64,000 bases of DNA, taken from the NCBI GenBank assembly GCA_965200875.1, contig OZ241456.1, positions 782,588 through 846,587 of the forward strand, given 5' to 3'. The notes under the pieces are model-generated. The model was given only the letters and a program-made list of their open reading frames with translations, did no database searches and was not told where the DNA came from. Shown here piece by piece: positions 6,865 through 55,004 of the stretch; position 1 is the first letter of the stretch; every line of letters starts with the position of its first letter. Both the position numbers and the translations under genes were made by a program. Origin of the DNA: Bdellovibrionales bacterium (GTDB lineage Bacteria > Bdellovibrionota > Bdellovibrionia > Bdellovibrionales > UBA1609).

Positions 6865-6941
<77 letters not shown>

Positions 6942-12066: not shown

Positions 12067-12101
12067 AGAATATACGGGAGCTAAACCAAGGGTAGTATAA
12101 T

Positions 12102-13625: not shown

Positions 13626-13666
13626 ATAGTCGCCCGTGAAAACGGGAATCTTGTTGGTGGAGGAGG

Positions 13667-16643: not shown

Positions 16644-19632
<2,989 letters not shown>

Positions 19633-24004: not shown

Positions 24005-24112
24005 ATAGTCGGGGGCTTTAAAAGTTTTTTATCTCAATAATAGAATAAAAGCTGGTTTATTTTCATTTTTAAATAAACTTCTTATTTTTTTCAGAAAAAT
24101 CATTTATATTAT
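24005..24112 (+). repeat. 108-bp conserved intergenic element, copy 1 (copy 2 at 49172-49279)
   Basis: About 85 percent identity by eye over 108 bp in the same orientation. Both copies lie upstream of plus-strand genes. Confidence 0.8.
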
Positions 24113-24514: not shown

Positions 24515-25219
24515 TTGATAATTGCTTTTAAGGTGTGGCCTTTGAGTGAGACAGATAAAAGTGCACTTTTAAAGAAAACCAAAGCTCTGGGTCTTGAAGA
24601 AAAATTTTTCTACTCACGATTTAAAACTTATGTATTTGAGTGGGAGGGGTGGCGTGAAAAAAAACAAGCTTTAAGAGCCTGCGAAACTTTTTTGAATTTT
24701 CCAGGGCTGGATTACTGCGAACCAAATTTTTTACAAAAGCCTCCTAATAAAAATGATTTTTTGACAGATACAACAGAACCTAAGTCAGATATAAAGCTTA
24801 ATCCTCAGGAGACTTTTTCTGATACAGAGTCAGGAAATATTCGCTCCTGTAAAATTATTTCATCTGAATTAAATTTGATTAAAGGTAGATTATCAGATTA
24901 TTGGGCACAGGAAATGATTGGCTCTGATTTAATGAGAGAGAAACTTAAACTTTTGCCCCCTGTAAAAAAACACCTTGTTGCGGTATTTGATACCCCTACC
25001 TCAAAACGACATGATATAGGTTCTACAAATATTATTTCACATGAGGGAAAACAGGCCGTCTTGCCCCCCATAGGTAACAGTATTACCAATTTTGATGTAA
25101 CTCTCTCAGAGCACAGCTTAGGGCATAGTGACTATCTGTTGGAAACCGCTGAAAACAGATGTAAACACCTAAAGTCCAAAAAACCGGCAAGCCCTCCTAG
25201 TCAAAGAGCAGTAAGATGA
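24515..25219 (+). CDS. N-terminal portion of a subtilase-like locus, with the 5-prime end disrupted at the C16 tract
   Basis: The frame is open from 24293 and encodes a hydrophobic signal-like segment (FHFSFFCFVFSIVSLIFFQKSYA) before the tracked TTG start. VAVFDT resembles the S8 catalytic Asp motif. Confidence 0.5.
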   Translation: MIIAFKVWPLSETDKSALLKKTKALGLEEKFFYSRFKTYVFEWEGWREKKQALRACETFLNFPGLDYCEPNFLQKPPNKNDFLTDTTEPKSDIKLNPQETFSDTESGNIRSCKIISSELNLIKGRLSDYWAQEMIGSDLMREKLKLLPPVKKHLVAVFDTPTSKRHDIGSTNIISHEGKQAVLPPIGNSITNFDVTLSEHSLGHSDYLLETAENRCKHLKSKKPASPPSQRAVR

Positions 25220-31887: not shown

Positions 31888-32331
31888 ATGAGTGAGCAAA
31901 ATAAAAAAGAAAGTGAAATCAATACGGATTTCTTAGATCGCTGTATTCGAGCTTTGGAAATTTCATACAATAAACTGCAAAAACTGTCCCCGGAAAATAT
32001 TGAATATGACATTTATCGCTCTGCTTGTGTTAAAGAGTTTGAAATTATTTTGGAGCAATGCGGGAAGTTGTTAAAAAAACGCCTGAGAGATTTTTTTCAT
32101 TCCAATAAAGCTGTTGATGATTTGGTATTTAAGGATCTTTTTCGTTACTCAGCAAAACATGGTTTGATGGATATTAAGAGCAGTGAACGCTGGTGTAAAT
32201 ATAGAGATAACAGAAATAACACAGCTCATGATTATGGAGTGGGTTTTGCCGAAGAAACTTTAAAAGCTCTATCCCCATTTATAACTGACGCGAAAGCCAT
32301 TGTTGATATTTTGAAAAAGAAAGAGACATAA
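31888..32331 (+). CDS. HEPN-domain protein (nucleotidyltransferase substrate-binding, HI0074-like)
   Basis: 147 aa, helical, with an R-x4-H motif (RNNTAHDYG). It lies directly upstream of an MNT-domain ORF. Confidence 0.7.
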   Translation: MSEQNKKESEINTDFLDRCIRALEISYNKLQKLSPENIEYDIYRSACVKEFEIILEQCGKLLKKRLRDFFHSNKAVDDLVFKDLFRYSAKHGLMDIKSSERWCKYRDNRNNTAHDYGVGFAEETLKALSPFITDAKAIVDILKKKET

Positions 32332-35454: not shown

Positions 35455-37446
35455 ATGATGAAAATTAAAAAATTAGAGATTGAAAATTTTAAAGCTATAA
35501 AGCATCTGAAGTTGGATATTTTAAGTGACACTGTTTTAATTGCTGGCCCAAATGGCTGTGGCAAATCATGTATCTTTCATGCAATTAGATTATTAAAATC
35601 TGTTATAGGTGGATATCAGGATAATGAGTGGCATTTGTGGTTTAATGAATTTCAAATAAGTCCACAAAACCTTGGTCAGGATATTATTAAGTTATTTCAA
35701 ACAGATGACAGAAAATTACAAATTAAAGCCGATTTTGAATTAAGTGAAGAAGAAAAAACATTTTTAAAAAATGAAGGTAAAGATATGCTTGAATACCAGC
35801 TATGGAAAAGAGCATTACCTAATATTTTCAATACTCTAGATCAACAATACTATAAAGCTCGACCGTTAGGTGCACAATATGGTGATATAGCTAAAAAAAT
35901 AACCGAATCATCTAAGCAATTATTTGAAAATTTGAATAAAGAATTGTCTCAACCAAAAATTAATGTTTGTTTTGAAGCTGATGTAAACGGTGTTCTTACA
36001 ATATCTCCTACAAAATCATTACAGCTTGCATTTAGTTTTTTTGAAAAAGACTTAGGTATTATTGATTATCATGGCCCTGATAGGAATTACCATAAAGAAA
36101 CATTAAATAATATTAATTTAAATATTAAGACAAGTCACCAATCTATAAAGCAACACTCTTTATACAATTATACAAATAAGTATTCCAATGTGAAACAGGA
36201 AATGGTTGGAAGTTATATTAGGAGTTTGCTGACAAAAGAGGCTGGAGGAGTAGTGAACAGTTCAGATTCCAATTTAATTGATACCTTAAAAGAGTTGTTT
36301 AATGAGTTTTTTCCTGGAAAAGAGTTTTTAGATCCACAACCAAGTAAAACTGGTGGAATTGATTTTCCTGTAAAACTAAAAAATGGCACAACTCATGATA
36401 TCAATGATCTTAGTTCAGGTGAAAAAGAGGTGCTTTATGGTTATTTGAGATTAAGAAGTTCTACACCAAAAAATTCTATCATTATGATTGATGAACCAGA
36501 GCTTCATTTGAATCCAAAATTAATTTCTGGCCTACCACATTTTTACAAAAAACATTTAAGTGAAAAAATGGGTAATCAAATTTTACTAATAACTCATTCT
36601 GATGCTTTTCTTCGTGAAGCTATGAGAGAAAAGGATTATCAAGTTTATCATATAAAACCACCTTTTAGTATTTCATCTTATAAAGATAATCAAATTAAAG
36701 TAGTCAATGTAAATAATGATTTGGAAGAAGCTATTATTGATTTAGTTGGTGATTTAGCCACTTATTCACCAGATAAAAAAAATGTGTTGTTGGAAGGAGA
36801 AAACTCAGAGTTTGATTCAAAAATGATTACAAAGTTATTTCCTGAATTTTCAGAAAAAGTAAACTTATTATCTGCTGGCTCAAAGCATAAAGTAATCAGA
36901 CTACATGAATTATTGGAAAAAGCAAATCAAGAAGGGCAACTACATACAAAATTTTTTTCAATTATAGATAAGGATCTACATGATGATAACACTATAAGAT
37001 CAATAAAGGCATTTCAGTGGGATGTTTATCATATAGAAAATTATTTATTAAATGAAGACTACTTACTAAAATCTGTAAATGGATTGCTATTGCAAAAACA
37101 ATGGAGTATTGAAGAAATAAACGATTTATTATTAAAATGTGCAAAAGAATCTATAGGTGTCCTTATTAAAGATATTCTAACTAATGAGGTATATAAAAAA
37201 ACTCCTAATCTTAAAAAAATAGGATGTGATCCAGAAAATTTAAATATCTCTATAGAGATTTATAACTCTCTTCAAAGAAAAATAGACAATCTTTCTAAAA
37301 TTCCAACAAAGGATTATTTGCAAAAATTACAAGATATTGAAAAGCAAAAACGAAAAGAATTTAATCAGGCTTTTTGCAATTACACATGGAAGGAAAAAGT
37401 GAAAGGGAGAGATGTATTAAAAAGATTAGTGGCAACAATTAATTAG
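35455..37446 (+). CDS. fused ABC/SMC-type ATPase + DUF4435-like Toprim domain (OLD/PARIS-like)
   Basis: Walker A is LIAGPNGCGKS, the signature is LSSGEKE and Walker B is IIMIDEPELHLNP. The C-terminal half carries NVLLEGENSEFD, FFSIIDKDLH and VYHIENYLL. Confidence 0.65.
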   Translation: MMKIKKLEIENFKAIKHLKLDILSDTVLIAGPNGCGKSCIFHAIRLLKSVIGGYQDNEWHLWFNEFQISPQNLGQDIIKLFQTDDRKLQIKADFELSEEEKTFLKNEGKDMLEYQLWKRALPNIFNTLDQQYYKARPLGAQYGDIAKKITESSKQLFENLNKELSQPKINVCFEADVNGVLTISPTKSLQLAFSFFEKDLGIIDYHGPDRNYHKETLNNINLNIKTSHQSIKQHSLYNYTNKYSNVKQEMVGSYIRSLLTKEAGGVVNSSDSNLIDTLKELFNEFFPGKEFLDPQPSKTGGIDFPVKLKNGTTHDINDLSSGEKEVLYGYLRLRSSTPKNSIIMIDEPELHLNPKLISGLPHFYKKHLSEKMGNQILLITHSDAFLREAMREKDYQVYHIKPPFSISSYKDNQIKVVNVNNDLEEAIIDLVGDLATYSPDKKNVLLEGENSEFDSKMITKLFPEFSEKVNLLSAGSKHKVIRLHELLEKANQEGQLHTKFFSIIDKDLHDDNTIRSIKAFQWDVYHIENYLLNEDYLLKSVNGLLLQKQWSIEEINDLLLKCAKESIGVLIKDILTNEVYKKTPNLKKIGCDPENLNISIEIYNSLQRKIDNLSKIPTKDYLQKLQDIEKQKRKEFNQAFCNYTWKEKVKGRDVLKRLVATIN

Positions 37447-37619: not shown

Positions 37620-37790
37620 AGTGGTTGAAAGCCTTTTTTGCTTTCTGTTTAGGTGCTGGATTCCCGCCTGCGCTGGAATGACGTGTATGGAGCGAGCATA
37701 GGTGCAAGTTGTAAGGTGATGATAGGATATACATAGGCTTGTGAATGGCTGAAAGCCCTTTGGGCTTTCAGTTTTGGGAACATACATGAA
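37620..37790. repeat. compound intergenic repeat: hairpin gaaagcc/ggctttc + ggattcccgcctgcgctggaatgac core + second hairpin ctgaaagccc/gggctttcag
   Basis: Read directly. Related copies lie at 38170-38231 and 40045-40110. Confidence 0.8.
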
Positions 37791-38169: not shown

Positions 38170-38231
38170 CGTATTGAAAGCCTTTTTGGCTTTTAGTTTA
38201 GATACTGGATTCCCGCCTGCGCGGGAATGAC
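38170..38231. repeat. compound intergenic repeat copy (hairpin + ggattcccgcctgcgcgggaatgac)
   Basis: Read directly from the sequence. Confidence 0.8.
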
Positions 38232-38273: not shown

Positions 38274-39461
38274 ATGCAGATAACGCAGATAAAGTTAAAA
38301 AATTTTCGGGCTTTTCAAAATGTGGAGATGCGGGATATTCCGCACTTCGTGGTTCTTGTTGGTGCTAATGGCACAGGCAAATCCACTTTGTTTTCCGTTT
38401 TTGGTTTTCTTCGTGACGCAATGACCTCTAATGTGACCACCGCTCTTTCAAAATTGGGAGGAAGTCGGGGTTTTAAAGAGGTGGTCAGCAGAAACTCAAC
38501 AGGTCCTATTGAGATTGAAATCAAGTTTCGGGAAAAACCCAAAAGTCAGTTGGTTACTTATGCCTTGTGTATTGCTGAAAAAAATGGTCGCGCGATAGTG
38601 GAACGGGAGATCTTAAAATATCGCCGAGGTACCAGGGGAGCACCTTGGAAGTTTTTAGATTTTTCATGCGGGAAAGGCCAAGCTGTTACCAATGAGATGG
38701 ATGATGTAAAAGATGAAAAAGACCTTCAGAGAGAAGAACAAAACCTTAAATCTCCTGATTTGCTGGCCATAAAGGGACTAGCCCAGTTTGAGCGATTTCC
38801 TGCTGTAGTGGCTCTTGGCAATTTGATTGAGCGTTGGCATATCTCTGACTTCCATATCAGCAAAGCGCGCCCGGAACAAGAATCGGGGTATGCGGAACAC
38901 TTGTCACGCTCAGGAGAAAACTTGTCCTTGGTGGTGGAATATCTTTATCAAAATCATAGAAATGTTTTTGACACTATTATCAAACAATTGAGTAAAAGAG
39001 TGCCTGGCATTACCAAAGTTGATTCCAAACAAACAGAAGAAGGACGTATTTTATTGAAATTTCAGGATGGGGATTTTGAAGATCCGTTTCTAGCTCGTTA
39101 TGTTTCTGACGGTACAATTAAAATGCTGGCCTATCTGATTTTACTTTATGACCCTGCTCCTCATCCTCTGCTGTGCGTGGAAGAACCGGAAAATCAACTT
39201 TATCACAGTTTGCTGGAAGAATTAGCAGAGGAATTTCGCTCTTATGCCAACAAAGGCGGGCAGGTATTTGTCTCCACTCACTCCCCGGATTTTTTAAATT
39301 CTGTCAAACTGGAAGAAGTATTTTGGCTGGAAAAGCAATCCGGCTATACAGTTGTCAAACGAGCTATGGCTAATGAGCAAGTTTCCGCTTATATGAAACA
39401 AGGGGATAAAATGGGAAATCTTTGGACACAGGGTTTTTTTACAGGAGCAGATCCTAAATGA
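38274..39461 (+). CDS. AAA_15/AAA_21-type ABC ATPase
   Basis: Motifs IKLKNFRAF, VLVGANGTGKST, YVSDGTIKMLAYL, LLCVEEPENQLYH and VSTHSPDF are present. Confidence 0.8.
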   Translation: MQITQIKLKNFRAFQNVEMRDIPHFVVLVGANGTGKSTLFSVFGFLRDAMTSNVTTALSKLGGSRGFKEVVSRNSTGPIEIEIKFREKPKSQLVTYALCIAEKNGRAIVEREILKYRRGTRGAPWKFLDFSCGKGQAVTNEMDDVKDEKDLQREEQNLKSPDLLAIKGLAQFERFPAVVALGNLIERWHISDFHISKARPEQESGYAEHLSRSGENLSLVVEYLYQNHRNVFDTIIKQLSKRVPGITKVDSKQTEEGRILLKFQDGDFEDPFLARYVSDGTIKMLAYLILLYDPAPHPLLCVEEPENQLYHSLLEELAEEFRSYANKGGQVFVSTHSPDFLNSVKLEEVFWLEKQSGYTVVKRAMANEQVSAYMKQGDKMGNLWTQGFFTGADPK

Positions 39462-40027
39462 AAAATCTTGTTTTCTTTCTGGAAGGATATTCTGAAAAAG
39501 TAATGCTGGAAGGTCTGTTATCGCGTTTGTTGCCTGAAAATGTTTCTCCTGTTTATTGTGTGTTTAAAGGGAAAAAAGACTTGGAAAAGAATCTTTTTAA
39601 AAAAATACAGGGATGGCAAAAACCTGAAAGTGCTTTCATAGTTTTGCTCGACCAAGATCAGGAAAACTGTAAATCTCTTAAGAAAAGAATACTTGAAATA
39701 TGCAAACAGTGTGAAAATTCAGTAACCCCTTTAAAGTATATTATTCGCGTAGCTTGCCGTGAACTGGAAAGCTGGTATTTTGGTGATTTAGAAGCTGTTG
39801 GAAAAGCATTTAATAAGCCAAAATTGCCAGATCGATATAAGAATAAAAAACAATATAAAAATCCAGACAAAATTCAAAATCCTGCGAAAGAACTTGAGAA
39901 GATTACCAATAAAGAATATCAAAAAATTTCTGGTTCTAGAGCTATTGGTTCTTTACTTTCCTGGGAAAATAATAAATCACGTAGCTTTAAAGTGTTTATC
40001 GAAGGTATCAAGGATCTGGTTCAATGA
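39458..40027 (+). CDS. DUF4276-like (Toprim-like) protein
   Basis: 189 aa. The N-terminus LVFFLEGYSEKVML has a Toprim-like Glu. VLLDQDQE is DxD-like and RELESWYFGD is also present. A 4-nt overlap couples it to the upstream ATPase. Confidence 0.55.
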   Translation: MKNLVFFLEGYSEKVMLEGLLSRLLPENVSPVYCVFKGKKDLEKNLFKKIQGWQKPESAFIVLLDQDQENCKSLKKRILEICKQCENSVTPLKYIIRVACRELESWYFGDLEAVGKAFNKPKLPDRYKNKKQYKNPDKIQNPAKELEKITNKEYQKISGSRAIGSLLSWENNKSRSFKVFIEGIKDLVQ

Positions 40028-40044
40028 AAAATGATTCTCATTTT

Positions 40045-40110
40045 TCAGTTTAGGTGCTGGATTCCCGCCTGTGCGGGAATGACTTGTATGGAGGGAGAGC
40101 GAGCATGGAT
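40045..40110. repeat. compound intergenic repeat copy (ggattcccgcctgtgcgggaatgac + gtatggagggagagcgagcatgg tail)
   Basis: Read directly from the sequence. Confidence 0.8.
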
Positions 40111-40989: not shown

Positions 40990-42162
40990 ATGATACATAG
41001 AATACAACAACTCAAAACCCGGCAAAGCTTATTTCTGTTCGGAGCCAGAGGAACAGGAAAATCCACTTTATTACAAATGACTTTTCCTTTGAAAGGCACT
41101 TTGTGGATAGATCTCTTGGATTATAAACAGGAAAATTCTTTATCCAAAAATCCTGATAGGCTTTCTTTTTTAATTGCTGGAGGGCAGTTTAAAAGGGTAA
41201 TCATTGACGAAGTTCAAAAAATTCCTAAATTATTGGATATTGTTCATAAGGAGATGGAGGCCAATAAAGCCATCCAATTTATTATGACTGGTTCCAGCGC
41301 GCGAAAGTTAAAAAGAGGGCAAGCGAATTTATTAGCTGGCAGAGCGGTTGCTTATTATTTGTATCCGCTTTCTTGTTTTGAAACTGGTTCTGCACAGCTG
41401 AAACTCAAAACATATATGCATTGGGGTGGGCTTCCAAGGCTATGGAATCTTAATTCAAAATCGGAAAAAAAACTTTTCCTAGAAAGTTATGCTCATAATT
41501 ATCTTAAAGAGGAAGTTCTTCAGGAGCAGGTTATAAGAAACATACAGCCGTTTAAAAGATTTTTGGAAGTTTCAGCTCAGATGAACGGACAGATTATAAA
41601 TTATTCCAAGTGTGCGCGAGAAATTGGAGTAGATCACAAAACAATTCAAAATTATTTTTCTGTTTTAGAGGACACTTTGCTTGGTTTCTTTTTACCGGCT
41701 TACCATCGTTCTGTTAGAAAACAGCAAAGCAAAGCCCCTAAGTTTTTCCTTTTTGATTTAGGAGTGAAAAAAGCTCTTGAGGAAACTTTGGATATTCCTT
41801 TGCGACAAGGAACTTATGGTTTTGGTCAGGCTTTTGAGCATTTTATTTTATCGGAATGTTGCAAGCTCAATCACTATTTCAGAAAATCTTATAAGTTTTC
41901 TTATCTCAAAACAAAAGATGGATTGGAGGTGGATTTGGTGATCCAAAGACCTAGAAAAAAAGACATTCTTGTAGAGATTAAATCAACACAGGAAATTAAA
42001 GCAGAAGACACAAAAACTATCAGTAAAATCGCAAAGGATTGGAAAACTCCTTGCTCAGCTGAAGTATGGTCTTTAGATCAGGAAGAACAGAAAATCAAAA
42101 AGGTTAAATGTCTTCCTTGGGACAAAGCTCTAAAAACTTATTTTCCAATCCGCAAGCCATAG
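40990..42162 (+). CDS. AAA_14 ATPase with DUF4143 domain
   Basis: Motifs LFGARGTGKSTLL and VIIDEVQKIPKLLDIVH are present, with a DUF4143-like FKRFLEVSAQMNGQIINYSKCAREIGVDHKTIQNYFSVLEDT. Confidence 0.75.
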   Translation: MIHRIQQLKTRQSLFLFGARGTGKSTLLQMTFPLKGTLWIDLLDYKQENSLSKNPDRLSFLIAGGQFKRVIIDEVQKIPKLLDIVHKEMEANKAIQFIMTGSSARKLKRGQANLLAGRAVAYYLYPLSCFETGSAQLKLKTYMHWGGLPRLWNLNSKSEKKLFLESYAHNYLKEEVLQEQVIRNIQPFKRFLEVSAQMNGQIINYSKCAREIGVDHKTIQNYFSVLEDTLLGFFLPAYHRSVRKQQSKAPKFFLFDLGVKKALEETLDIPLRQGTYGFGQAFEHFILSECCKLNHYFRKSYKFSYLKTKDGLEVDLVIQRPRKKDILVEIKSTQEIKAEDTKTISKIAKDWKTPCSAEVWSLDQEEQKIKKVKCLPWDKALKTYFPIRKP

Positions 42163-42321: not shown

Positions 42322-42601
42322 CTTAGTCAATCCTGAATAAGTCTGTTTAGTGAGAGTATGCTCTTACCAATACTTCACCGCTCGGTCTCAAACATGCGTT
42401 TTGCCACACACGCGTCTTTTTAGCCACGGTGTGCTCAAAGCCGAACTCGCCTCGCGGTGAGTATCGGTAAGATCTTTTTCACTGATACTTTTTGCAAGAA
42501 AACAAAGGTTGTATTGTAAAACCTTGCAATTTTTCCCGAACCTTTTATAAAAAAAATCAAGTGATAACAACGCTTTATTATTTATTCAGAACCGACTACT
42601 T
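42322..42601. mobile_element. MITE-like element of about 280 bp with imperfect terminal inverted repeats and a long internal hairpin
   Basis: The left end is cttagtcaatcctgaataa and the right end is ttattcagaaccgactac. Internal arms cttaccaatacttcaccgc and gcggtgagtatcggtaag pair. The left 110 bp recurs at 50441-50550. Confidence 0.45.
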
Positions 42602-42711
42602 AAAAAAAAATATTTTTTATTAGATATTTCTCATAAAATATTTTACTATCGAGCAATCAATAACTTTCTATCAATCAATCAACAATTCAATAACAACGAA
42701 AGGTGGATTTT

Positions 42712-43287
42712 ATGAAAACGACACTTATTTTATTACTTTTAAGCTTAGGTGCTTCTAGTTATGGTCAAGAAGAAACTGTTGAAAATCAATGTAATATTAA
42801 TAATTATGCAGACTATATAAATAAACTAGGAATTCATAATTGCAAGTTGATCTTTGCGAAATTTGACAATGTGGATTTGAGTGGTGCAAATTTTTCTAGG
42901 GCAAATTTATACCGGGCGAGTTTTGATAATGTGAATTTGACCGATGCGAATTTGATTGAGGCATATTTGCAAGGAGTGATTTTTACTGATGCAAATTTAA
43001 CTGGAGCAAATTTTCACCGAGCGAATTTGCGCCAAGCGGATATACGTGGTGCAGTTTTATATGGTGCAAATTTTTCTAGGGCTGATATGCGCGATATGGT
43101 TTTGAACTTGGTGAATTTTGCAGGAGTAAATTTAACCGAAGCGAATTTTGCTAGGGTGAATTTAACCGATGTGAATTTAACCGGAGCACTTTTGTATAAG
43201 GCGAATTTAACCGAGGCGCAAGTCACCAGAGAACAGGCAGAGTATTTGGAATCACAAGGCTTAAGTGGTTTTATTGTGGTAGACTAA
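42712..43287 (+). CDS. secreted pentapeptide-repeat protein (paralogue 1)
   Basis: Signal peptide MKTTLILLLLSLGASSYG. More than 25 A(D/N)Lxx pentapeptides are present. An SD aaggtgg lies 7 nt upstream of the ATG. Confidence 0.85.
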   Translation: MKTTLILLLLSLGASSYGQEETVENQCNINNYADYINKLGIHNCKLIFAKFDNVDLSGANFSRANLYRASFDNVNLTDANLIEAYLQGVIFTDANLTGANFHRANLRQADIRGAVLYGANFSRADMRDMVLNLVNFAGVNLTEANFARVNLTDVNLTGALLYKANLTEAQVTREQAEYLESQGLSGFIVVD

Positions 43288-43415
43288 GCCAGTCGGTCTT
43301 GAATAAACGATAAAGCATTATAATCACTCGATTTTTTTTATCGTTGCGTTGCATAGTGACTATTCTGGTGCTTTTTGGGAGAATAAAAAGAGTTTTCCCA
43401 AAAGGAAGGAATTTT

Positions 43416-44300
43416 ATGCAATTCGGAGGTCATCAGAGCTTTCATTTGAGAGATCAGTGGCTTTATAAAGGTACTTATTGGACAAACAAGTCTCCTCAGA
43501 TACTTTTGAATACGAATAATTATAAAATCGCAGAAAAAGCTATACAGAAGCTGGGTGTTGGTAAAAACATGGTGGATTCCATACGATACTGGCTTAAAGC
43601 AACAAAATTGATAGTCATTAACAAAAATGGCATCGAGCTTACGGGTACAGCAAAAACTATCTTGGCAAAAGATCCTTATTTTGAACAAGATGGTACACTT
43701 TTTTTAATTCATTATCTGCTGGTCACAAATAAAGAGTTTGCAACAACATGGTACTGGTTTTTTAATCATTTTTCTGCTAGGGAATTTGACAAAGAAGCAC
43801 TTAAGAATGCTTTTGCTGCTTATATTTCCATTAAAACAAATAAAAAAATTAAGTCTGCCACTTTAGAGAAGGACTTGAATTGCTTATTAAGAATGTATCA
43901 GGTTGTGGAATACACAGGAAGAAAAACCCCTGAAACAGAAACCCCTTCACCTTTTGCTAAGTATGGATGGATTAAAAAAAGGGGAGAAAGTTTTATACGA
44001 AATAAGTTAAATGTGAGTGACTTTAATATAAATGTGTTTGCTTATATGTTTTATGTGTTTTGGAAAAATGACTTAAGCCAGCCTGAAGCTGTAAAACTGG
44101 AAGATATAACATTTAAAGAAAACTCCCCAGGTCGTATCTTTCTTTTTTCAGAGGAAGAAATGAATGAGCTTGTGGAAAACTGCTCTAAAAAAACAAAATA
44201 TCTCAACTATTCACGAACGGGTGGATACCTTATTTTGCGACCTGATAAAGAACAGCTGAAAAAAGCTTTAACTAATTATTACAGAGATATGAGTCTTTGA
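43416..44300 (+). CDS. DUF4007-like protein
   Basis: Starts MQFGGHQSFHLRDQWLYKG, which matches my recollection of the DUF4007 N-terminal signature (GHetF.lR..WL.Kg). An SD aaggaagga lies upstream. The tracked ORF start at 43344 is probably too early. Confidence 0.5.
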   Translation: MQFGGHQSFHLRDQWLYKGTYWTNKSPQILLNTNNYKIAEKAIQKLGVGKNMVDSIRYWLKATKLIVINKNGIELTGTAKTILAKDPYFEQDGTLFLIHYLLVTNKEFATTWYWFFNHFSAREFDKEALKNAFAAYISIKTNKKIKSATLEKDLNCLLRMYQVVEYTGRKTPETETPSPFAKYGWIKKRGESFIRNKLNVSDFNINVFAYMFYVFWKNDLSQPEAVKLEDITFKENSPGRIFLFSEEEMNELVENCSKKTKYLNYSRTGGYLILRPDKEQLKKALTNYYRDMSL

Positions 44301-44556
44301 TATATTTGTCAATATGGGTTATAGTTCAGTGTCCATTACCCACTGCCCCTTACTACAATCCTAATGTGACAATTTGAATTGACTTTCATACATATTACGA
44401 TTTGGTCATTGACTAGGCTTATTAAGTTTTCTCGCTACTGTGGTGATGACTCGGAGTAAAATCGTATAAAGATTTCACCAGTTACTTTTTACACTTGTTT
44501 TTTTTTATCTTATTTGTGAGTATTATCAATCATTAACAGTAAATAAGGAGTAAATC

Positions 44557-45198
44557 ATGAAAATTATAATTGTTTTACTATTTTTAAGCATTGGTTTTTT
44601 GAGTTATGGAAAAGACACACATCTTTGTCATATTCATAATTATCAAAATTATATAAAAAAGCCTGGAAATCATAAGTGCGATTTGCGTCAAGCTGATTTG
44701 TCTGGGACGAATTTTCAGGGTGCGAATTTGGAAGGAGCATATTTTTACAAGGCGAATTTGAGTGGAGCAGATTTGACGAATGCGAATTTATACCGAGCGG
44801 ATTTGATATTGGCTAATTTGAGTGGTGCGAATTTGACTGAGGCGGATTTGTATGTAGCAAATTTGACCGATGCGAATTTACAAGCTGTGAATTTGACCGA
44901 TGCGAATTTGTTTCATGTGATTTTTCAAGGTGCGAATTTGACTGAGGCGAATTTGTACCGAGCGAGTTTGCGCGATGCGAATTTGTACGGGACGAATTTT
45001 CAAGGTGCGAATTTGGCGAATGCGGATTTAAGCCGTGCAGATTTGCAAGGTGCGAATTTGACTGATGCGAATTTGTACCGAGCGAGTTTGCGCGATGCGG
45101 ATTTGTACGGGACGAATTTTACCAATACGAAAGTTGATTCGGCCTTGGCGACTTATTTAACTTCACAAGGTATAAGTGGTTTTGTTGTTATAGAATAA
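44557..45198 (+). CDS. secreted pentapeptide-repeat protein (paralogue 2)
   Basis: Signal peptide MKIIIVLLFLSIGFLSYG. It shares the CHIHNYQNYI and SQGISGFVVIE ends with paralogue 1. An SD aaggag lies upstream. Confidence 0.85.
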   Translation: MKIIIVLLFLSIGFLSYGKDTHLCHIHNYQNYIKKPGNHKCDLRQADLSGTNFQGANLEGAYFYKANLSGADLTNANLYRADLILANLSGANLTEADLYVANLTDANLQAVNLTDANLFHVIFQGANLTEANLYRASLRDANLYGTNFQGANLANADLSRADLQGANLTDANLYRASLRDADLYGTNFTNTKVDSALATYLTSQGISGFVVIE

Positions 45199-45455
45199 GT
45201 TATGATTATTAGTCCAAGAAAGCCAAACCACTACTCTGAATTTTATGCAAATCAACCCACGCCGGATTAAAGCCTAGGGAGAGGCTTTAAAACAGGAGTT
45301 TAAACGACTTTTTATTTTGAAAATGAAGCACCGGGACTTGAATAAAAATAATATTTGTAAAACAATAATTCCAGAAAGTTTTTTTTATTCTTCAATTCGG
45401 TGTTAGTGTGTGTAGCCAGAGCCAATGCGTATGAATAAAAAAGATATGGAGTTTT

Positions 45456-48400
45456 ATGAAAAAACATACAGAGAAATGGATCCAATTATCTGAAAGTTAC
45501 AATCGATCAACAAATTTGGAGTTGGATTTTAAGGATGTCAGTCGGCTAAAGGATATTTATCTGTCTTCCAAGTTTCAAGAAGGATTGAAAGAGGTTTTTA
45601 CCTCTATCTTGGAAACAAACTCAAAACACCGGGTGAGAGTATTAAGTGGTTCTCCAGGACTTGGAAAATCCACCTTTGCTTTACTAATTGCGCAAATACT
45701 TTCCAAAAAACACCCGAAGTTTATTGGCCATTTAATGAACCAAGCCAATAAAAAATTGCAAATTGATTTTAATCAATTTCAAAAATCAAGAAAGACAAAA
45801 TTGTTACCGGTTTTTATTAATGGATATGAAGGAGAAATTGAAGAAGTATTTAAACATAATTTAAAAAAAGCATTATCAGAAAATAGCCTGTCTCTTAAAG
45901 GGGTTTTCAAAGACACTTTGAAATTTTACAAAGCCAGTTTAAACACTTTAAAAACAAAGGGTTATAGTGGCATATTTGTTATTTATGATGAGTTTGGGAA
46001 ATATCTGGAAAAAGCTTTGCACAGTCCTACAGATTTAAACATTCAGTTTTTGCAAAACTTTGCGGAATTTTGCGATCGCTCAGGAGAAACACAATGTCAC
46101 CTGATGCTTATTACTCACCTGTCTGTTTCTCAATATGCTAGTCAGCTTCCTATTAATGTTCAGCAGGAATGGGCGAAAGTTGAAGGCCGATTTCAGGAAT
46201 CTGCTTTTTACGATAAAAGCGCGGATTATTACAAAATGATTTCTGCTGTTTTTGAAAAAAATATTTCAGAAACTCATCCTTCTATAGCTGAAAAATATAA
46301 AACTTACATTAATAAATATCTGGTAAATTTTTCCAAAGACGCATTGGAAGGTTTTATAGATTTAAAGAACATAAAATCCATTATTCTTAATTGTTTCCCT
46401 TTGCATCCAAGTGTTCTGGCTCTTTTGCCTCATCTCTCCAAAAAAGTGGCTCAAAATGAAAGAACCCTTTACACTTTTTTAACTCGCGATGAAGATAACT
46501 CTCTTAAAAGGTTTTTACAGGAAAAAACACAAATCACACTTCTTATGCCATATCATTTGTATAAGTATTTTCAACCCCTTATCGGAAAAGATATTGGTAT
46601 AGGAGGTACTTATAAAATTCAACTTATGGTGGAAGAAGCTTTTAAATATGTTAGTAAAACTGATGAAGTTTCAAAACAAATTATCAGTCTTATGGCTCTT
46701 TGCTCTGTTATTAAAGACACTCACTTTGCACCTTTGACAGAAGCCTTTATTATATCTTGTTTCAACCAAGATTATTCAAGAACAAATATTAAAAAATCCT
46801 TAACTTATCTGAGAAAGAAAAAAGTAATTTTCTATAACAAAAACACAAAACAATATCTTTTACAGGAAGGTTCTCCTGTTGATATTGACGAGGAAATAGC
46901 CAAACTGAAAAATATCACTCTTACCGGGAAAAGTCTTGTGCAGGTTTTAAAAAGATATTTTAAAACAGACTTTATTACTCCTAAAAAATATAATTTTGAA
47001 AACGCCATAACTCGATTTTATAGAACAGAAATTATTTCTGTTGAAGAGTTAAAAAATTTAAGCAAAAAAAACAACATTGATTTTTACAGAGAAGATGGCA
47101 GATTATTTTATGTAATCCCCTTTAGTCATGATGAACTAGTTTACGCAAGAAGGGAAATTCAGAAAATTTCATCTCCATTAACTGTTTTTTTACTACCAAA
47201 ACAATTTATAGAATGCAGAAAAGATATTGAAGAGTTAAACGCTGTTGATTGTCTATATAACAATAAGGAGATTTTATCAGCCAGCTCGTTGGTAAAAAAA
47301 GAACTGGATCGTCATAAAGAAATATTACTTTCTTCTATAGATTCGCTTTTAAAGCCACTTATTGGTTATATGGGTCTTTCAGCAGATGTTATATATCCGA
47401 CTGAGCTTTCAGAGCAAAAGGAAATAACTCACTTTAAAGATCTGGAAAGGTTTTTGGGTACGTTTTTTACAAAAGAGTACAATAAATATGTGAGTTTTAA
47501 CCTAGAATACATGAATCGTCACAGTGTTTCAGGAAGCATCACTTTGGGTCGAAAGAAATTTTTGGACACTTTAAGATTTTATAAAGAAAAACCGAAGGGG
47601 GATATAACTTGCTTGATTAAAGGCCACGGGCCAGATTATGTGATTTTAGATACCATGTTAAGACTTTCCAGTTTTAAATACCATTCTGTGAAAAATATTT
47701 ATGAAGTTTCTTCAAAGTCAGAGTATTATAAATTTTTTAAGGAGTATAAAAAAATCCTCTCCCAACACCCTCAAGGCATTAGTGCCAGTATGTTGTTGGA
47801 TATACTGGTATCTCCTCCGTATGGTTTGCGCTTAGGTGTGATTCCGGTATTTATTTCCTTGGCAGACTTATGTTTTAAACAACCCGTAAGCCATTATTTT
47901 GATTCCGCTTATGTTAAAGATCTGGATGGAGATCATTATGATCTTTTAATGAAGTATCCAAAAAAAACTACTATTCACTACACTCCGATAGATAATAAAA
48001 AACAAAAATTTTTGGATGGACTGGGAAAAATATTTAAAGCTGATGGTGTGTCTGTGCGATCTGTTATTTCTGCTTTAGTAAAATGGAGAAGAGGTATCCC
48101 TGAGTCCACAAAATTTTCTTCCGGTTTGTCTCAAGAGGGGAGAAAATTGCTTATTCAGATTGACTCTTCTAAACAGCCGGATCATCTGCTTTTTACCGGG
48201 ATTCCTTATTGTTTTGAAAAAACAAATGTTGGTAGAGTAAACCTTCAAGGTACAAAAGATATTTTATTAAAGTTGAAAATAACAAAAAAAGAAATTGACG
48301 CAATTTATAGAAATTTGCTGTTGAAGATGGAAAAAGAGCTTTCTAGTTTTATCTCGTTTATAAATGAGCAATGTTTAAACCATTCCGCAAGTAAAACCTT

Positions 48401-49118
48401 GCAGAATAAAAGAAAGAATGTAACTTTAGAGGCTGTTTCTTCCGTAGGTAAAGATCGGCAGAATAAAAGCCTGAATCAAATCAGTATAATTAAAAATTTT
48501 CAGAATATTCTTTCACAGGTAAAGAATTATCCCTTTAGCTCCAATACCAATCGATTTGTTGGAAGAGCACTAAACTTTCCTTCTTTCGGGCATAAACAAT
48601 ATTTTTTGGAAACCATTGCTGATGTGTTGACTGGTTCTTCCCCTCGTTATTGGAATGGACAGGGTTATTCCATGTTTGAGTTTGCCTTAAAACGAGTTAA
48701 AACAGAAATAGAATTAGGCGCGGAAATAGCTAACCCTCAGTTTAAGGGGAAATCTGTGTTAGCTTTTATTGATAAGGGGCAAAATAAAAAAACAATCATA
48801 AAACTAGGTGCTCAATTTGAGTTGGAAAAACGACTTGGCCTCGCTCTGGAACAAATAAACAAAACATTGGATTCTTTGGATGAGATAGATAAAAGAAAAG
48901 TTGTTTTAGCCTTGTTGGAGAATATTGACAAAAAAACTGCTACAGACAAAACTCTTAATTTTAATAGTGTCCAGTCTTCCAATAATGTTCAGCAGAAATA
49001 CGGCTCTCAGCATACCTCTGTTTCGCGCTCTACTCCAAAGACATATCCTGCTACTACACAGCGTTCCCTTAATACGGGTCATTCCCTCACAAGCGGGAAT
49101 CCTATATGGAAAAAGTAA
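45456..49118 (+). CDS. large P-loop NTPase (1220 aa), BrxC/PglY-size class, family unassigned
   Basis: Walker A is LSGSPGLGKST and Walker B is FVIYDEFGKYLE. The long C-terminal region is uncharacterised. The last about 15 codons derive from a palindromic repeat copy. Confidence 0.65.
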   Translation: MKKHTEKWIQLSESYNRSTNLELDFKDVSRLKDIYLSSKFQEGLKEVFTSILETNSKHRVRVLSGSPGLGKSTFALLIAQILSKKHPKFIGHLMNQANKKLQIDFNQFQKSRKTKLLPVFINGYEGEIEEVFKHNLKKALSENSLSLKGVFKDTLKFYKASLNTLKTKGYSGIFVIYDEFGKYLEKALHSPTDLNIQFLQNFAEFCDRSGETQCHLMLITHLSVSQYASQLPINVQQEWAKVEGRFQESAFYDKSADYYKMISAVFEKNISETHPSIAEKYKTYINKYLVNFSKDALEGFIDLKNIKSIILNCFPLHPSVLALLPHLSKKVAQNERTLYTFLTRDEDNSLKRFLQEKTQITLLMPYHLYKYFQPLIGKDIGIGGTYKIQLMVEEAFKYVSKTDEVSKQIISLMALCSVIKDTHFAPLTEAFIISCFNQDYSRTNIKKSLTYLRKKKVIFYNKNTKQYLLQEGSPVDIDEEIAKLKNITLTGKSLVQVLKRYFKTDFITPKKYNFENAITRFYRTEIISVEELKNLSKKNNIDFYREDGRLFYVIPFSHDELVYARREIQKISSPLTVFLLPKQFIECRKDIEELNAVDCLYNNKEILSASSLVKKELDRHKEILLSSIDSLLKPLIGYMGLSADVIYPTELSEQKEITHFKDLERFLGTFFTKEYNKYVSFNLEYMNRHSVSGSITLGRKKFLDTLRFYKEKPKGDITCLIKGHGPDYVILDTMLRLSSFKYHSVKNIYEVSSKSEYYKFFKEYKKILSQHPQGISASMLLDILVSPPYGLRLGVIPVFISLADLCFKQPVSHYFDSAYVKDLDGDHYDLLMKYPKKTTIHYTPIDNKKQKFLDGLGKIFKADGVSVRSVISALVKWRRGIPESTKFSSGLSQEGRKLLIQIDSSKQPDHLLFTGIPYCFEKTNVGRVNLQGTKDILLKLKITKKEIDAIYRNLLLKMEKELSSFISFINEQCLNHSASKTLQNKRKNVTLEAVSSVGKDRQNKSLNQISIIKNFQNILSQVKNYPFSSNTNRFVGRALNFPSFGHKQYFLETIADVLTGSSPRYWNGQGYSMFEFALKRVKTEIELGAEIANPQFKGKSVLAFIDKGQNKKTIIKLGAQFELEKRLGLALEQINKTLDSLDEIDKRKVVLALLENIDKKTATDKTLNFNSVQSSNNVQQKYGSQHTSVSRSTPKTYPATTQRSLNTGHSLTSGNPIWKK
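49078..49102. repeat. palindromic repeat copy (gtcattccctcacaagcgggaatcc) forming the 3-prime end of the NTPase ORF
   Basis: Read directly from the sequence. Confidence 0.8.
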
Positions 49119-49171
49119 TGTCAAGGATATACCTATTTGTTTTTTCTGATATTTATGACTTTCGTTAGTCA

Positions 49172-49279
49172 ATAGTCGAGGTTTTAGAAGTTTTTTATCT
49201 CAACAATAGGATAAAAGCGGGTTTATTTTCATCTTTCAAATAAATCTCTTATTTTTCCAGAAAAAATCATTTACATTAT
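49172..49279 (+). repeat. 108-bp conserved intergenic element, copy 2
   Basis: Aligns to 24005-24112. Confidence 0.8.
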
Positions 49280-49330
49280 AATAAGGACTTAGAGAAAGAG
49301 AAAAAGAAAAGACATGATATTGTAAGTAGA

Positions 49331-50380
49331 TTGGAAGGTATAGAAGATACTTATGAAGAGATAGAAGAGGCTAGACTATATGGCACAGAAGCAGATAATT
49401 GTGATAATTGTTGGGAAAGACGACTTACAAGATTCAAAGAGATTGTAGACCCTGCCCCTTCCGGTTGGGAAGTCCTGGGCAATGTGGTTGGCACAGTCGG
49501 TGCGGCCGCTATGGGTTATTATGGAGTTAAAGAAGCAAATAAATTAAGAGACCAACAAGGTTTTGCGGCTCAACCTGGCCTTGCTATGGGCCTTGCATAC
49601 CCTTTTATTATGAAGGGGCTTTATGGTGGTGGACTGTTTGGCAGTTCCTCATCTTTGGCCTGCTCCCCCACTATGCACGGCGGAGGTGGACTGTTTAGTA
49701 ACCCCTTTATGGCACAAATGCAAATGCAACAAATGCAACAAATGCAAATGTTTGGCGGTATGCCTAGCATGGGCGCGATGATGGGCATGGGTAACATGAT
49801 TGGTATGATGGGCATGGGTGCGATGATGGGCGGTGCGATGATGGGCATGGGCAACATGATAGGCATGGGTAACATGATGATGGGCATGGGTAACATGATT
49901 GGTATGATGGGCATGGGCGCGATGATGGGCGGTGCGATGATGGGCGGTATAATGAATATGGGAATGCCTGGCATGGGTAATATGATGGGCATGGGTAATA
50001 TGATGGGCATGGGTGGCATAATGAATATGGGAATGCCTGGCATGGGTAATATGATGGGCATGGGTAATATGATGGGCATGGGTAATATGATGGGCATGGG
50101 CCAACAATCTTATATGTCATATCAACAAGCTTTAATGTCCTGGAGAATGTCACAAATGAATAATTATATGCAAAAGCAACAAGCTGTAAGTAGCCTGCAA
50201 CAAGAAGTATGGCGTCTTCAAGCACAAATCCAGCAAACACTCTATGGTGGCACTGGCACTAACTATGACTTCAGCGGAGCTGGTGGTGGTGGTGATGATG
50301 ATGATGACGGAAGTGCCGTTGGTGCTGGTGGCAGAGAAGACGGACCAGTAAACCGTGGTAGAATAATCCGAGGAATATAA
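49331..50380 (+). CDS. Met/Gly-rich low-complexity protein with Q-rich coiled coil and poly-Asp tail
   Basis: 349-aa ORF with a TTG start and no clear SD. About 130 residues are MGNMMGMG-type repeats. All other frames across the repeat are artefactual ORFs. Confidence 0.45.
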   Translation: MEGIEDTYEEIEEARLYGTEADNCDNCWERRLTRFKEIVDPAPSGWEVLGNVVGTVGAAAMGYYGVKEANKLRDQQGFAAQPGLAMGLAYPFIMKGLYGGGLFGSSSSLACSPTMHGGGGLFSNPFMAQMQMQQMQQMQMFGGMPSMGAMMGMGNMIGMMGMGAMMGGAMMGMGNMIGMGNMMMGMGNMIGMMGMGAMMGGAMMGGIMNMGMPGMGNMMGMGNMMGMGGIMNMGMPGMGNMMGMGNMMGMGNMMGMGQQSYMSYQQALMSWRMSQMNNYMQKQQAVSSLQQEVWRLQAQIQQTLYGGTGTNYDFSGAGGGGDDDDDGSAVGAGGREDGPVNRGRIIRGI

Positions 50381-50440
50381 TCTATCCCATCCTGAATAAA
50401 TGTTTTTTCTTTCCTCGAAAGCGGATTTGAGCGAGATGGA

Positions 50441-50550
50441 CTTAGTCGATCAGGAATAAATTCGTTTAGTGGACAACAAGTACTCTTACCAATACTGCAC
50501 CGCTTAGGTGAAAACATACGTGTTTTTCACACACGCGTCTTTCAGCCACG
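50441..50550. repeat. partial copy (left about 110 bp) of the MITE-like element at 42322
   Basis: cttagtcgatcaggaataaattcgtttagtgg...ctcttaccaatactgcaccgc...cacacacgcgtctttcagccacg aligns at about 80 percent identity. Confidence 0.75.
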
Positions 50551-50577: not shown

Positions 50578-51744
50578 TCACGGGCCACTATTTTTATCAG
50601 CAGATTTCTTTAGAGGAGCAGAAGGGGAGGATGGAGGTGAAGTAGGAGGAGGTGGTGAAGCAGGAGGAGGTGGAGATGATGACACAGAAGAAGAAACATA
50701 CTCTCCTCGATTTTCTAGGTTATGTTGTTCTCCTATTGGCATAAAAAAAGGAGTGTAAGACTTTCCTTTCTTATCTATTGTACCTATCACTCTAGGTTCA
50801 AGAATAATAACTCCATCTTCTCTTACTTGATAAATAACACCTCTGTTTCTTCCAATTCTGTCATTCTTTTGTAATTGATAAATTCCTTCATCTGTTTTAA
50901 ACAAGGCTTTTGAAGCTCCTATTTTGGAATTCCATTTAATTCCCACTAATGTAATGTCAGTTAATGCGTACTTCCCTGTCGGATAATCTGGCAACACATT
51001 CTCTTCCATTACTCCTTCCACTACTTTTTGTTCTTCCACTTGATAAGGATTAAAAGGGTCTCTTCTATCAACGCTATCATATTGATAATCGCTTAAAAGC
51101 CTGTATATATTCGCGACTTTTTGATTGATATTCTGTAAATCCTTAGCTGTTTTTGAATCAATTGCTTGGTTCGATTGAGGTTGTTGCTCCATGTTTTCTT
51201 GCAACATTTCATCCGTGTTGGCAGATGGAATCTCTGGTGGAGGGGGAATAACATTGTTATCTGTACCGTCGCCTGAAATGGAAGCACCTTGACGCTGAAC
51301 AGAAGAAGGTACAGAAGGAGGTGTGGAGTCAGCTAAGCCAGTAGCAGGACGATCAGCCGGACGGGCAGAACCACCATCCCCCGCAGAAGGAGGTGTTGGC
51401 GCATTAGCAGGACCAACCGAAGCCGGTGGACGGGCAGAACCATCATCTCCCGCAGAAGGAGGTGTTGGCGCATTAGCAGGACCAGCTGGTGGACGGGCAG
51501 AACCATCCCCCGCAGAAGGAGGTGTGGAGTCAGCTAAGCCAGTAGCAGGACCAGCAGGACGAGGAGAACCACCATCCCCCGCAGAAGGAGGTGTGGAGTC
51601 AGCCAAGCCAGTGGCAGGTCCAGAAGGGTCTCCTTTTGCAGATACATTTGGAAAAAAAGAAAAAGTGGTAAAAAACCATATCACAAAAAATAAAGATCCA
51701 ATACCTACATTCAAATAAAGAAAAATCTCAAAAAGTCTTCTCAT
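50578..51744 (-). CDS. pilP: PilP-like pilus assembly protein with Pro-rich tandem-repeat N-terminal region
   Basis: It occupies the position after pilO. The C-terminal region DPFNPY...ITLVGIKWNSKIGASKALFKTDEGIYQLQKNDRIG..GVIYQVREDGVIILE fits the PilP pattern. Repeats lie at about 51297-51636. Confidence 0.55.
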   Translation of the reverse strand: MRRLFEIFLYLNVGIGSLFFVIWFFTTFSFFPNVSAKGDPSGPATGLADSTPPSAGDGGSPRPAGPATGLADSTPPSAGDGSARPPAGPANAPTPPSAGDDGSARPPASVGPANAPTPPSAGDGGSARPADRPATGLADSTPPSVPSSVQRQGASISGDGTDNNVIPPPPEIPSANTDEMLQENMEQQPQSNQAIDSKTAKDLQNINQKVANIYRLLSDYQYDSVDRRDPFNPYQVEEQKVVEGVMEENVLPDYPTGKYALTDITLVGIKWNSKIGASKALFKTDEGIYQLQKNDRIGRNRGVIYQVREDGVIILEPRVIGTIDKKGKSYTPFFMPIGEQHNLENRGEYVSSSVSSSPPPPASPPPPTSPPSSPSAPLKKSADKNSGP

Positions 51745-54182: not shown

Positions 54183-55004
54183 TTAGCGCATAAAAAAAAC
54201 AGACAAATACATACGAGACAGCTCTTCCCCCCAAAAAATATACGCAATCGCTGAAAAGGCTAAATAAGGCCCAAAAGGTATTGTTTGTCTGAGATAATTC
54301 TTAGATTGAAACATTATAACAATACCGGCAAATAAACCCATAAAGCAGGAAAGCAAAATAACGAATGGTATGGCTTTCCAGGTCAAAACAGCTCCAATCC
54401 AGGCTAATAACTTAATGTCCCCCCCTCCTAATCCTTCTTCTTTACGAAGGGCGTAATAAAAAATTGCTATAAACCACAAAAAACCACCTCCCATCAACAT
54501 TCCGCTCAAAGCTGGCCAAAATTCACGCCCAGCTTCCGGGTTCAGAAGTGCTCCTGTTAAACCCAGAAAAATACCTGATAAGGTGAGGGAGTCCGGCAAA
54601 ATCATCTGTTCCAAATCCACGGCACTGGCAACCACGAGGGCAAAGGTAAAAAGCAGGTATTCCAACAAAACATATTTCCATCCCACAAAATATAATAGCA
54701 AAACAAACAAAACTGCCATTAATAGTTCGATGGCAAAAGGACGAAAAGGCGGTTTTTCCCGTTTAATTTTCTTGGCGACCCAAGAACAAGGCAACCATCC
54801 CCAGTCATTTTGACACTTTAGGCAAAAAGAAAAAAAACCTCCTTTTGTGTCTCCTTTTTCAATATTGGAGAAAATTTCTGTTAAAATCGCCCCCACACGA
54901 CCAAAAACAATCCCTAAAACAATAAATAAATAAAAATTCCAATGAAAGGAAAAGGAGAACCAATCAGGCAATTCGCTTCCTTTCAAATAAAATGCTTGTA
55001 ACAA
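54183..55004 (-). CDS. pilD: prepilin peptidase (A24 family)
   Basis: Polytopic membrane protein with the catalytic-Asp context GGGDIKLLAWIG and LPDSLTL. The start is uncertain because it overlaps the upstream gene by 41 nt. Confidence 0.8.
   Translation of the reverse strand: MLQAFYLKGSELPDWFSFSFHWNFYLFIVLGIVFGRVGAILTEIFSNIEKGDTKGGFFSFCLKCQNDWGWLPCSWVAKKIKREKPPFRPFAIELLMAVLFVLLLYFVGWKYVLLEYLLFTFALVVASAVDLEQMILPDSLTLSGIFLGLTGALLNPEAGREFWPALSGMLMGGGFLWFIAIFYYALRKEEGLGGGDIKLLAWIGAVLTWKAIPFVILLSCFMGLFAGIVIMFQSKNYLRQTIPFGPYLAFSAIAYIFWGEELSRMYLSVFFMR

Follow-up and report, generated by a model that had tools for sequence, protein, structure and literature searches.

In intact Ssp defence systems, of which SspABCD-SspE of Vibrio cyclitrophicus FF75 is the type example, target sites are located by SspC, an Orc/Cdc6-type ATPase, together with SspB, a triple winged-helix subunit that recognizes and nicks DNA. 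Sulfur is inserted by SspD, an ATP pyrophosphatase of the PAPS-reductase fold, and by the cysteine desulfurase SspA, and SspE senses the phosphorothioate (PT) status of DNA and nicks invading molecules. Synthesis of PT requires sspBCD as the minimal gene set, in which the PAPS-reductase component is indispensable; sspA may be encoded at another site, or iscS may take its place (PMC12914056). DUF4007 has been equated with SspB, and SspC with a BrxC-like ATPase of the Orc/Cdc6 clade (PMC12914056, PMC12839542, PMC10853773); BREX type 4 is likewise built on DUF4007/BrxC-like pairs (PMC12914056, PMC12839542). Here we analyse a locus at 42.3–50.6 kb of a 64,000-nucleotide stretch of a Bdellovibrionales bacterium (contig OZ241456.1 of assembly GCA_965200875.1, positions 782,588–846,587; hereafter the window, to which all positions refer unless a relative is named). 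Five open reading frames (ORFs) follow one another on its plus strand and encode a pentapeptide-repeat protein (PRP1), a DUF4007 protein, a second pentapeptide-repeat protein (PRP2), a 1220-aa P-loop NTPase and a Met/Gly-rich protein. A first reading made from the sequence alone (the sequence-only reading) had proposed the block as a candidate undescribed system, either a stand-alone effector pair or a new arrangement. Our comparisons do not bear this out: the locus is a known system in broken form, and probably represents a recent, partly deleted and rearranged remnant of an Ssp phosphorothioation system that cannot modify DNA by itself.

The identity of the two core proteins is indicated by several profile matches. 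The DUF4007 protein is matched by PF13182 over the full length of the profile (positions 1–288 of 288), by the SspB models of PADLOC (scores in Table 1), and at 1e-13 by the PDB entries 6JUF and 6LB9, titled “SspB protein”. It is 58–76% identical to SspB of the Bdellovibrionales clade and 30–41% identical to SspB of three distant loci. The 1220-aa protein (45456–49118) matches the PADLOC SspC model across residues 13–1085 with 2e-129 and BrxC more weakly, with 1e-45; its motifs GSPGLGKST and VIYDEFGKYLE are present and invariant with those of the relatives, and both Walker A and Walker B are intact. Judged from these sequence matches, the pair is orthologous to sspB and sspC, and the locus has the full-length DUF4007 protein and the large P-loop ATPase that characterize an SspABCD(-SspE) system. 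The sequence-only reading had noted that DUF4007 proteins accompany large ATPases in phosphorothioation-type defence loci, which proved right, and the searches of Pfam, PADLOC and PDB did not place the two proteins in unrelated housekeeping families.

Two other described systems combine similar components. BREX type 4 (BrxP-BrxC-PglZ-BrxL) shares with the window a BrxC homologous to SspC and a BrxP that has a DUF4007 module like SspB. In the window, however, DUF4007 is a separate protein and is not fused to a PAPS reductase, the affinity to the SspB and SspC profiles is far stronger, and no BrxP, PglZ or BrxL was found among the scanned ORFs, save a marginal BrxP match through the DUF4007 part (0.0036). 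We do not assign the locus to BREX type 4. The HerA/FtsK-centred BREX-related capture system (DUF4007 + DUF6079; PMC12839542) likewise has DUF4007 and a BrxC-like ATPase without a PAPS reductase, but the window locus is without PglZ, STAND NTPase, HerA/FtsK, GNAT and TGT components, and its genes are orthologous to genes of bona fide sspBCD operons.

The arrangement of the two genes was compared with that in related genomes. GTDB species genomes were scanned with a chimeric query that joined a segment of window SspC to an SspD core; three peptide patterns each for SspC and SspD were used. The scan returned 17 related loci, and SspB, SspC and SspD follow each other in this order in all 16 that have enough contig; the 17th (locus L031) breaks off within sspC. 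SspA is present in almost all of these loci and SspE or a divergent DUF262 protein in most. Four contexts were retrieved through SspC alone and are hence unbiased as to sspD. All four contain DUF4007, SspC and PAPS_reduct (SspD) in succession, and beyond these an Aminotran_5 gene (SspA), a GmrSD_N/GmrSD_C gene (SspE) or both. The closest homologues in the SspC search are 58–79% identical, all belong to sspBCD operons and come from Bdellovibrionales-labelled metagenome-assembled genomes (MAGs), whose bin names RHO3, APA and SP5OBV1 suggest sponge metagenomes. In total, sspB lies beside sspC and is followed by sspD in 18 of 18 related loci examined, mostly from Bdellovibrionales MAGs, and sspE and sspA are usual; the linkage of the two core genes, a point on which the undescribed-system proposal depended, is thus conserved in other genomes, as part of the canonical order sspB-sspC-sspD(-sspE)-sspA. 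The spacing between sspB and sspC ranges from −14 to +105 nt in 15 relatives; L023, the closest relative, has 330 nt, and the window an insertion of 1155 nt. The sspC stop codon overlaps the start of sspD by 8 nt in most relatives. A pentapeptide-repeat gene between sspB and sspC, or elsewhere in the operon, was found in none of the relatives examined.

The genes that complete the operon in these relatives are missing from the window. When SspD, SspE and SspA of four relatives were compared with all 64 kb by tblastn (E ≤ 10), no match was obtained, and together with the Pfam and PADLOC searches of the scanned ORFs this reveals no PAPS reductase, no cysteine desulfurase and no SspE or Dnd gene. 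PF01507 has no match among the scanned ORFs, and SspE, SspF, SspG and SspH of PADLOC have none among 20 scanned ORFs. The window therefore contains neither an SspD adjoining sspC, nor an SspA cysteine desulfurase, nor a PT-sensing restriction partner (SspE with DUF262/DUF1524, or SspFGH), in agreement with the earlier remark that no modification gene lies nearby. Compared with SspABCD-SspE, the window shares the orthologous sspB and sspC and the region upstream of sspB, and its closest relatives carry the full set sspB-sspC-sspD-sspE-sspA; it differs in the absence of the three remaining genes, in the pentapeptide-repeat gene between sspB and sspC and in the replacement of the SspC C-terminus by 45 unrelated residues.

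The region downstream of sspC indicates how the genes could have been lost. By tblastn and C-terminal alignment, homology to SspC ends at 48983, about 10 codons short of the normal end. In the relatives, SspC has a conserved C-terminal “...EPEINA” whose codons overlap the start of sspD, and in the window this is replaced by 45 unrelated codons, which run through a palindrome resembling repetitive extragenic palindromic (REP) elements at 49078–49100. On the other side, the Met/Gly-rich ORF has a mechanical start at a TTG codon at 49331, whereas homology begins at about 49283. Its first 150 aa match residues ~455–609 of the proteins P0391–P0408, which are 750–1100 aa long, with 56–73% identity. 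Full-length members of this family begin with a signal peptide, their N-terminal half varies, and a conserved gene for a ~500-aa protein lies upstream (loci L033 and L034); the window lacks all of these. On the basis of these alignments, the ORF is the 3′ ~45% of a lineage-specific secreted-protein gene whose 5′ half is gone; the sequence-only reading had noted the ORF, which is indeed present, as a gene in its own right, and it is instead truncated at its 5′ end. The interval from 48983 to 49283 is thus a patchwork of repeats that links two truncated genes, which argues for a deletion or replacement that removed sspD, sspE, sspA and more.

The Met/Gly family itself has no Pfam match. Full-length genes are located at 10001–12718 of L033 and 9255–12247 of L034, in neither of which is there synteny with pil genes. 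The proteins contain a central hydrophobic conserved segment (IDPAPSGW...GTVGAAA...KEANKLRD-QGFAAQPG), a long low-complexity stretch rich in Met and Gly, and a Gln-rich C-terminus with a final IRGI in three of the four sequences read, and the ~500-aa upstream partner in L033 and L034 bears the motif SGHHTGYFAG.

The two pentapeptide-repeat genes are paralogues, with 41% identity between PRP1 and PRP2. Their N-termini are hydrophobic, and they also share a conserved pair of Cys residues and, at the C-terminus, the motif SQG(L/I)SGF. The N-termini are short and basic and then hydrophobic (MKTTLILLLLSLGASSYG in PRP1 and MKIIIVLLFLSIGFLSYG in PRP2), and these signal-peptide-like sequences together with the Cys pair indicate that both proteins are likely exported. 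Predicted export makes them poor candidates for partners of the DNA-scanning SspB and SspC. Both belong to the pentapeptide-repeat fold family (PF00805), as do the DNA mimics Qnr and MfpA, but they differ from the latter in their export signals and Cys pair and in their scores, 31–64 bits compared with cut-offs of 240–500: against NCBIfam they reach 49–64 bits for Qnr (cut-off 240) and 31–47 bits for MfpA (cut-off 360), and they fall far under the cut-off for HetL too. They are not counted among the Qnr/MfpA quinolone-resistance proteins, and a cytoplasmic DNA-mimic role seems unlikely from their sequences. PRP2 lies in the 1155-nt insertion between sspB and sspC, which occurs in the window genome only among those compared, and no convincing terminal inverted repeats or target-site duplications surround it. 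In a homology search with PRP2, generic pentapeptide proteins crowded the results and even the self match was missing. When the N- and C-terminal signatures of both proteins were sought by tblastn in 34 fetched loci, nothing was found but a different ORF with a pentapeptide-repeat domain in L023, which encodes 657 aa and lies 7 kb downstream (17141–19114).

The surroundings of the two genes are informative as well. The flanks of PRP1 and PRP2 are unrelated to each other. The stretch 43368–43411 is 87% identical to the 45 nt directly 5′ of sspB in L001 and L016, and the other non-coding parts of the block have no match in the ssp loci of the relatives at E ≤ 1e-3. The upstream neighbours of sspB are different in every genome compared, which suggests that PRP1 is merely a neighbour. 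We interpret the two putatively exported pentapeptide-repeat genes as unrelated passengers, one 5′ of sspB and one between sspB and sspC. The sequence-only reading had described secreted paralogues interleaved with the core genes; the arrangement stands, as supported by Pfam and by the signal-peptide-like N-termini, and the suggestion that they form part of the system does not, as they occur in none of the relatives.

These results lead us to propose the following sequence of events. A deletion or replacement would have taken out sspD, sspE and sspA and left sspB and sspC. Its left end would lie in the last ~10 codons of sspC, where the frame now continues for 45 codons and enters a REP-like element, and its right end in the middle of the large gene for a Met/Gly-rich secreted protein. 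PRP1 would have come to lie upstream, and PRP2 would have been inserted, as unrelated passengers. The locus alone would then no longer be able to modify DNA or restrict phage, and we infer that the loss was recent.

Several points weigh against this interpretation. To measure constraint, private changes were counted at alignment columns invariant in all other sequences (15 relatives). SspB of the window is changed at 1 of 93 clade-invariant sites and SspC at 1 of 340. Orthologues of similar divergence from intact operons have 0–9% private changes in SspB and 0.3–12% in SspC, and the window values are as low or lower. With both ORFs full-length, the alignments reveal no relaxed constraint on either protein, and it follows that the loss of sspD was very recent or that sspD sits elsewhere in the genome. 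If the genes are useless, a rough bound places the loss below ~0.6% neutral nucleotide divergence. The interpretation also demands that three rearrangements (PRP1, PRP2 and the deletion) all be recent or tolerated, and since the absence of sspD covers the 64-kb window, the gene could be located elsewhere in the source genome.

The last point is the basis of the most serious alternative, a split but working Ssp system in which sspD, with sspA or a housekeeping IscS or SufS, is located elsewhere, SspB and SspC act in trans, and PRP2 and the altered tail are tolerated. The constraint on both proteins and the intact Walker motifs are consistent with this scenario, as is the variability of the SspC C-terminal tail among relatives. 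Dispersal of SspA, or its replacement by IscS, is documented (PMC12914056), and a 3.3-kb insertion that separates sspC from sspD is tolerated in L029. We nevertheless consider it unlikely: sspD follows sspC in all 18 related loci with a gap of at most 3.3 kb, and neither an SspD representative nor any of the cluster members listed (15 of the 80 of the main cluster) is on the source contig. Moreover, sspC has lost the conserved end that would overlap the start of sspD, and the gene that follows it is cut short, which has the look of a deletion and not of a relocation.

It is quite improbable that purifying selection maintains sspB and sspC in a genome devoid of sspD, for a PT-independent DNA-scanning role such as that of a BrxA/BrxC-like sensor working with other island genes or one tied to the pentapeptide-repeat proteins. 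A new stand-alone system in which SspB and SspC, possibly with the latter proteins, work independently of phosphorothioation, perhaps as a DNA-scanning pair of the BrxA/BrxC kind, is very improbable. Such a system would be compatible with two intact and constrained genes that have no adjacent sspD, with the presence of DUF4007 and BrxC-like ATPases in a BREX-related system free of PAPS reductase (PMC12839542), and with the occasional fusion of Orc/Cdc6 defence ATPases to pentapeptide repeats (PMC10853773). However, the arrangement has been seen in one genome only, all relatives are canonical and none has a pentapeptide-repeat gene, and the flanks of the two such genes in the window are mutually unrelated. 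Their products have Sec-type signal peptides and the Cys pair and are predicted to be exported away from DNA, Pfam and PADLOC show no effector (nuclease, PglZ or HerA) beside the pair, and the locus carries deletion scars.

The repeats that bracket the block had been described in the sequence-only reading as near-identical direct repeats of 110 bp. They are real (blastn E 1e-14), but an alignment of 42322–42428 with 50441–50550 spans 111 columns, includes small indels and shows 76.6% identity. Exactly two occurrences of the conserved cores were counted in the window, compared with an expectation of 0. The ~60-nt 3′ core is also present in a relative, L033, in two tandem copies (377–436 and 524–559, 81–82% identical), in an intergenic region unrelated to ssp; these copies form a hairpin whose stem sequence varies between genomes. 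The presence of the core in L033 and the lack of an integrase or tRNA at the block lead us to regard the repeats, from sequence comparison, as diverged members of a dispersed REP-like intergenic family and not as the ends of a discrete element, and they may still have served as recombination substrates. An 8-kb mobile islet integrated beside pilP with the repeats as attL and attR is extremely improbable, for although direct repeats flank the block and ssp modules occupy different genomic contexts in each relative, the copies have diverged, their family is dispersed outside the ssp context, the main ORFs include no integrase, recombinase or transposase family (Pfam; ORFs below 120 aa not scanned), no tRNA is present, the block contents are truncated at internal junctions and the island runs on for ~22 kb to the left; we do not class the block as an att-bounded integrated element. 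A structured RNA or riboswitch was considered for the same repeats and rejected, with no Rfam match at E ≤ 1, fold z-scores of −0.4 to −1.3, no better folding of either strand compared with shuffled controls, and no fold shared by the copies.

Other repeats are found in and around the block. The REP-like palindrome ATTCCCGCnnGnGnGGGAATGAC is present at 33014–33036, 33188–33210, 37660–37682, 38209–38231, 40061–40083 and 49078–49100, and L033 contains 4–5 copies (at ~714, 6086, 7326, 9948 and 12744); it is thus a lineage-wide repeat and may be a driver of rearrangements. Its copies in the window occupy intergenic regions of the defence island, save the one inside the SspC tail. An AT-rich repeat of 110 nt (49172–49279) holds a promoter-like TTTCCA-17-TATAAT at 49254–49282; promoter and terminator scans of the block, including the one that gave this match, yielded counts at chance level. 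The second copy of this repeat is ~400 nt 5′ of an ORF at 24515–25219, itself followed by an S8-peptidase-like ORF. The 51-nt inverted repeat on either side of PRP1 has a partial third copy at 16234–16268, just 5′ of the 23S rRNA gene, and may be a promoter- or UP-like AT-rich element.

The features of the block are collected in Table 1. The ORFs that the sequence-only reading had claimed are present where it had placed them, as seen in the ORF listing and the Pfam matches. The mechanical start of the PRP1 ORF is a GTG codon at 42703.

Table 1. Features of the sspB-sspC block and its borders (window positions).
Feature	Position	Strand	Evidence or remark
Left ~110-bp repeat copy	42322–42429	+	160 nt 3′ of DUF4143 ATPase gene
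Left arm of 51-nt inverted repeat flanking PRP1	42547–42597	.	84% complementary to 43291–43341
PRP1, pentapeptide-repeat, predicted Sec signal peptide	42712–43287	+	Pfam Pentapeptide 5e-35
Right arm of inverted repeat at PRP1	43291–43341	.	Complementarity to 42547–42597
Native sspB upstream stretch (ribosome-binding-site/promoter-proximal, 45 nt)	43368–43411	+	87% identity to L001/L016
sspB (DUF4007), intact	43416–44300	+	PF13182 5e-70; PADLOC SspB 8e-66
PRP2, second pentapeptide-repeat paralogue, predicted secreted	44557–45198	+	Pfam Pentapeptide 2e-53
sspC, homologous part	45456–48983	+	PADLOC SspC 2e-129
Unrelated 45-codon tail of sspC frame, putative left deletion junction	48984–49118	+	C-terminal alignment; tblastn
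REP-like palindrome ATTCCCGCnnGnGnGGGAATGAC within sspC tail	49078–49100	-	6 window copies vs 0 expected
Promoter-like 110-nt repeat adjoining Met/Gly remnant	49172–49279	+	86% identity to 24005–24112
Met/Gly-rich gene remnant (3′ ~45%), putative right deletion junction	49283–50380	+	Homology to 750–1100-aa proteins
Right ~110-bp repeat copy, between Met/Gly remnant and pilP stop codon	50441–50550	+	Pairs with 42322–42429
pilP, last gene of pilD-pilMNOP	50578–51744	-	Pfam PilP 1e-8

The pair sspB-sspC is the last item of a ~30-kb defence island of this uncultured, Bdellovibrionales-like genome, between an rRNA operon (5S end at 19959) and pilP, and the island reaches another ~22 kb to the left of the block. 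According to Pfam and PADLOC it contains D12-class methyltransferases, a Schlafen/AlbA_2 protein and an MNT/HEPN pair. The genes directly 5′ of the block encode a fused PARIS AriAB (35455–37446, PADLOC 5e-174), a HEC-01 pair consisting of an AAA_21 ATPase and a DUF4276 protein (38274–40027), and a DUF4143 ATPase (PDC-S01, 40990–42162). Type I hsdM, with an N-terminal helix-turn-helix, and an MNT-fused hsdS are located at 27912–29756 and 32426–34306, with a HEPN-like gene (31888–32331) beside hsdS. No hsdR was found in the window, and hsdM and hsdS are apparently another incomplete system in the same island. Homopolymer tracts of G15 (23140–23154) and C16 (24302–24317) are present on the plus strand of the island near ORFs without assigned function; they could be due to phase variation or to long-read assembly uncertainty.

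On the other side, pilP, on the minus strand, is oriented towards the block and is preceded by pilO, pilN, pilM and a prepilin peptidase gene (pilD, 54183–55004). The block had been placed directly downstream of pilP, without pilQ, and this holds: no secretin gene (pilQ) was found among the window ORFs scanned. PilP has a long repeat region rich in Pro, Ser, Ala and Gly (repeats at 51312–51660). The sole tRNA of the window is at 6865–6941, and an 840-aa ORF without a Pfam family (13667–16189, minus strand), with a GC content of 0.30 and an AT skew of −0.42, lies just 5′ of the rRNA genes.

Decay and rearrangement of ssp loci are also seen elsewhere in the clade. SspE of L027 is reduced to N- and C-terminal remnants (10867–11131), and inserts of ~3 kb occur in the ssp loci of L025, L026 and L029. 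In L029 a second DUF262 (SspE-like) gene is inserted between sspC and sspD (7694–9772), and in L025 two additional genes lie between sspD and sspE (10815–13786). The SspC and SspA proteins of L023 (OZ241967.1) are far longer than their orthologues, with 1411 aa (5679–9914) and 666 aa (13297–15297), respectively, apparently as a result of in-frame insertions that are His/Asn-rich in SspC. Nine IMG/VR viral contigs (L006–L014), found by the motif GCYFCFFQ, encode SspD-type PAPS reductases that are 42–63% identical to SspD of the clade.

The chief value of these results is a correction, in that an apparent undescribed defence pair is more simply the B and C subunits of a degraded Ssp system. Automated calls of “SspB + SspC” require sspD before a PT system is inferred, and the constraint on SspB and SspC in this genome would be of interest only if the complete genome proves to be without sspD. 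To a minor extent, the locus illustrates the decay and reshuffling of defence modules at the REP-rich edges of islands in small Bdellovibrionales genomes, which are apparently sponge-associated.

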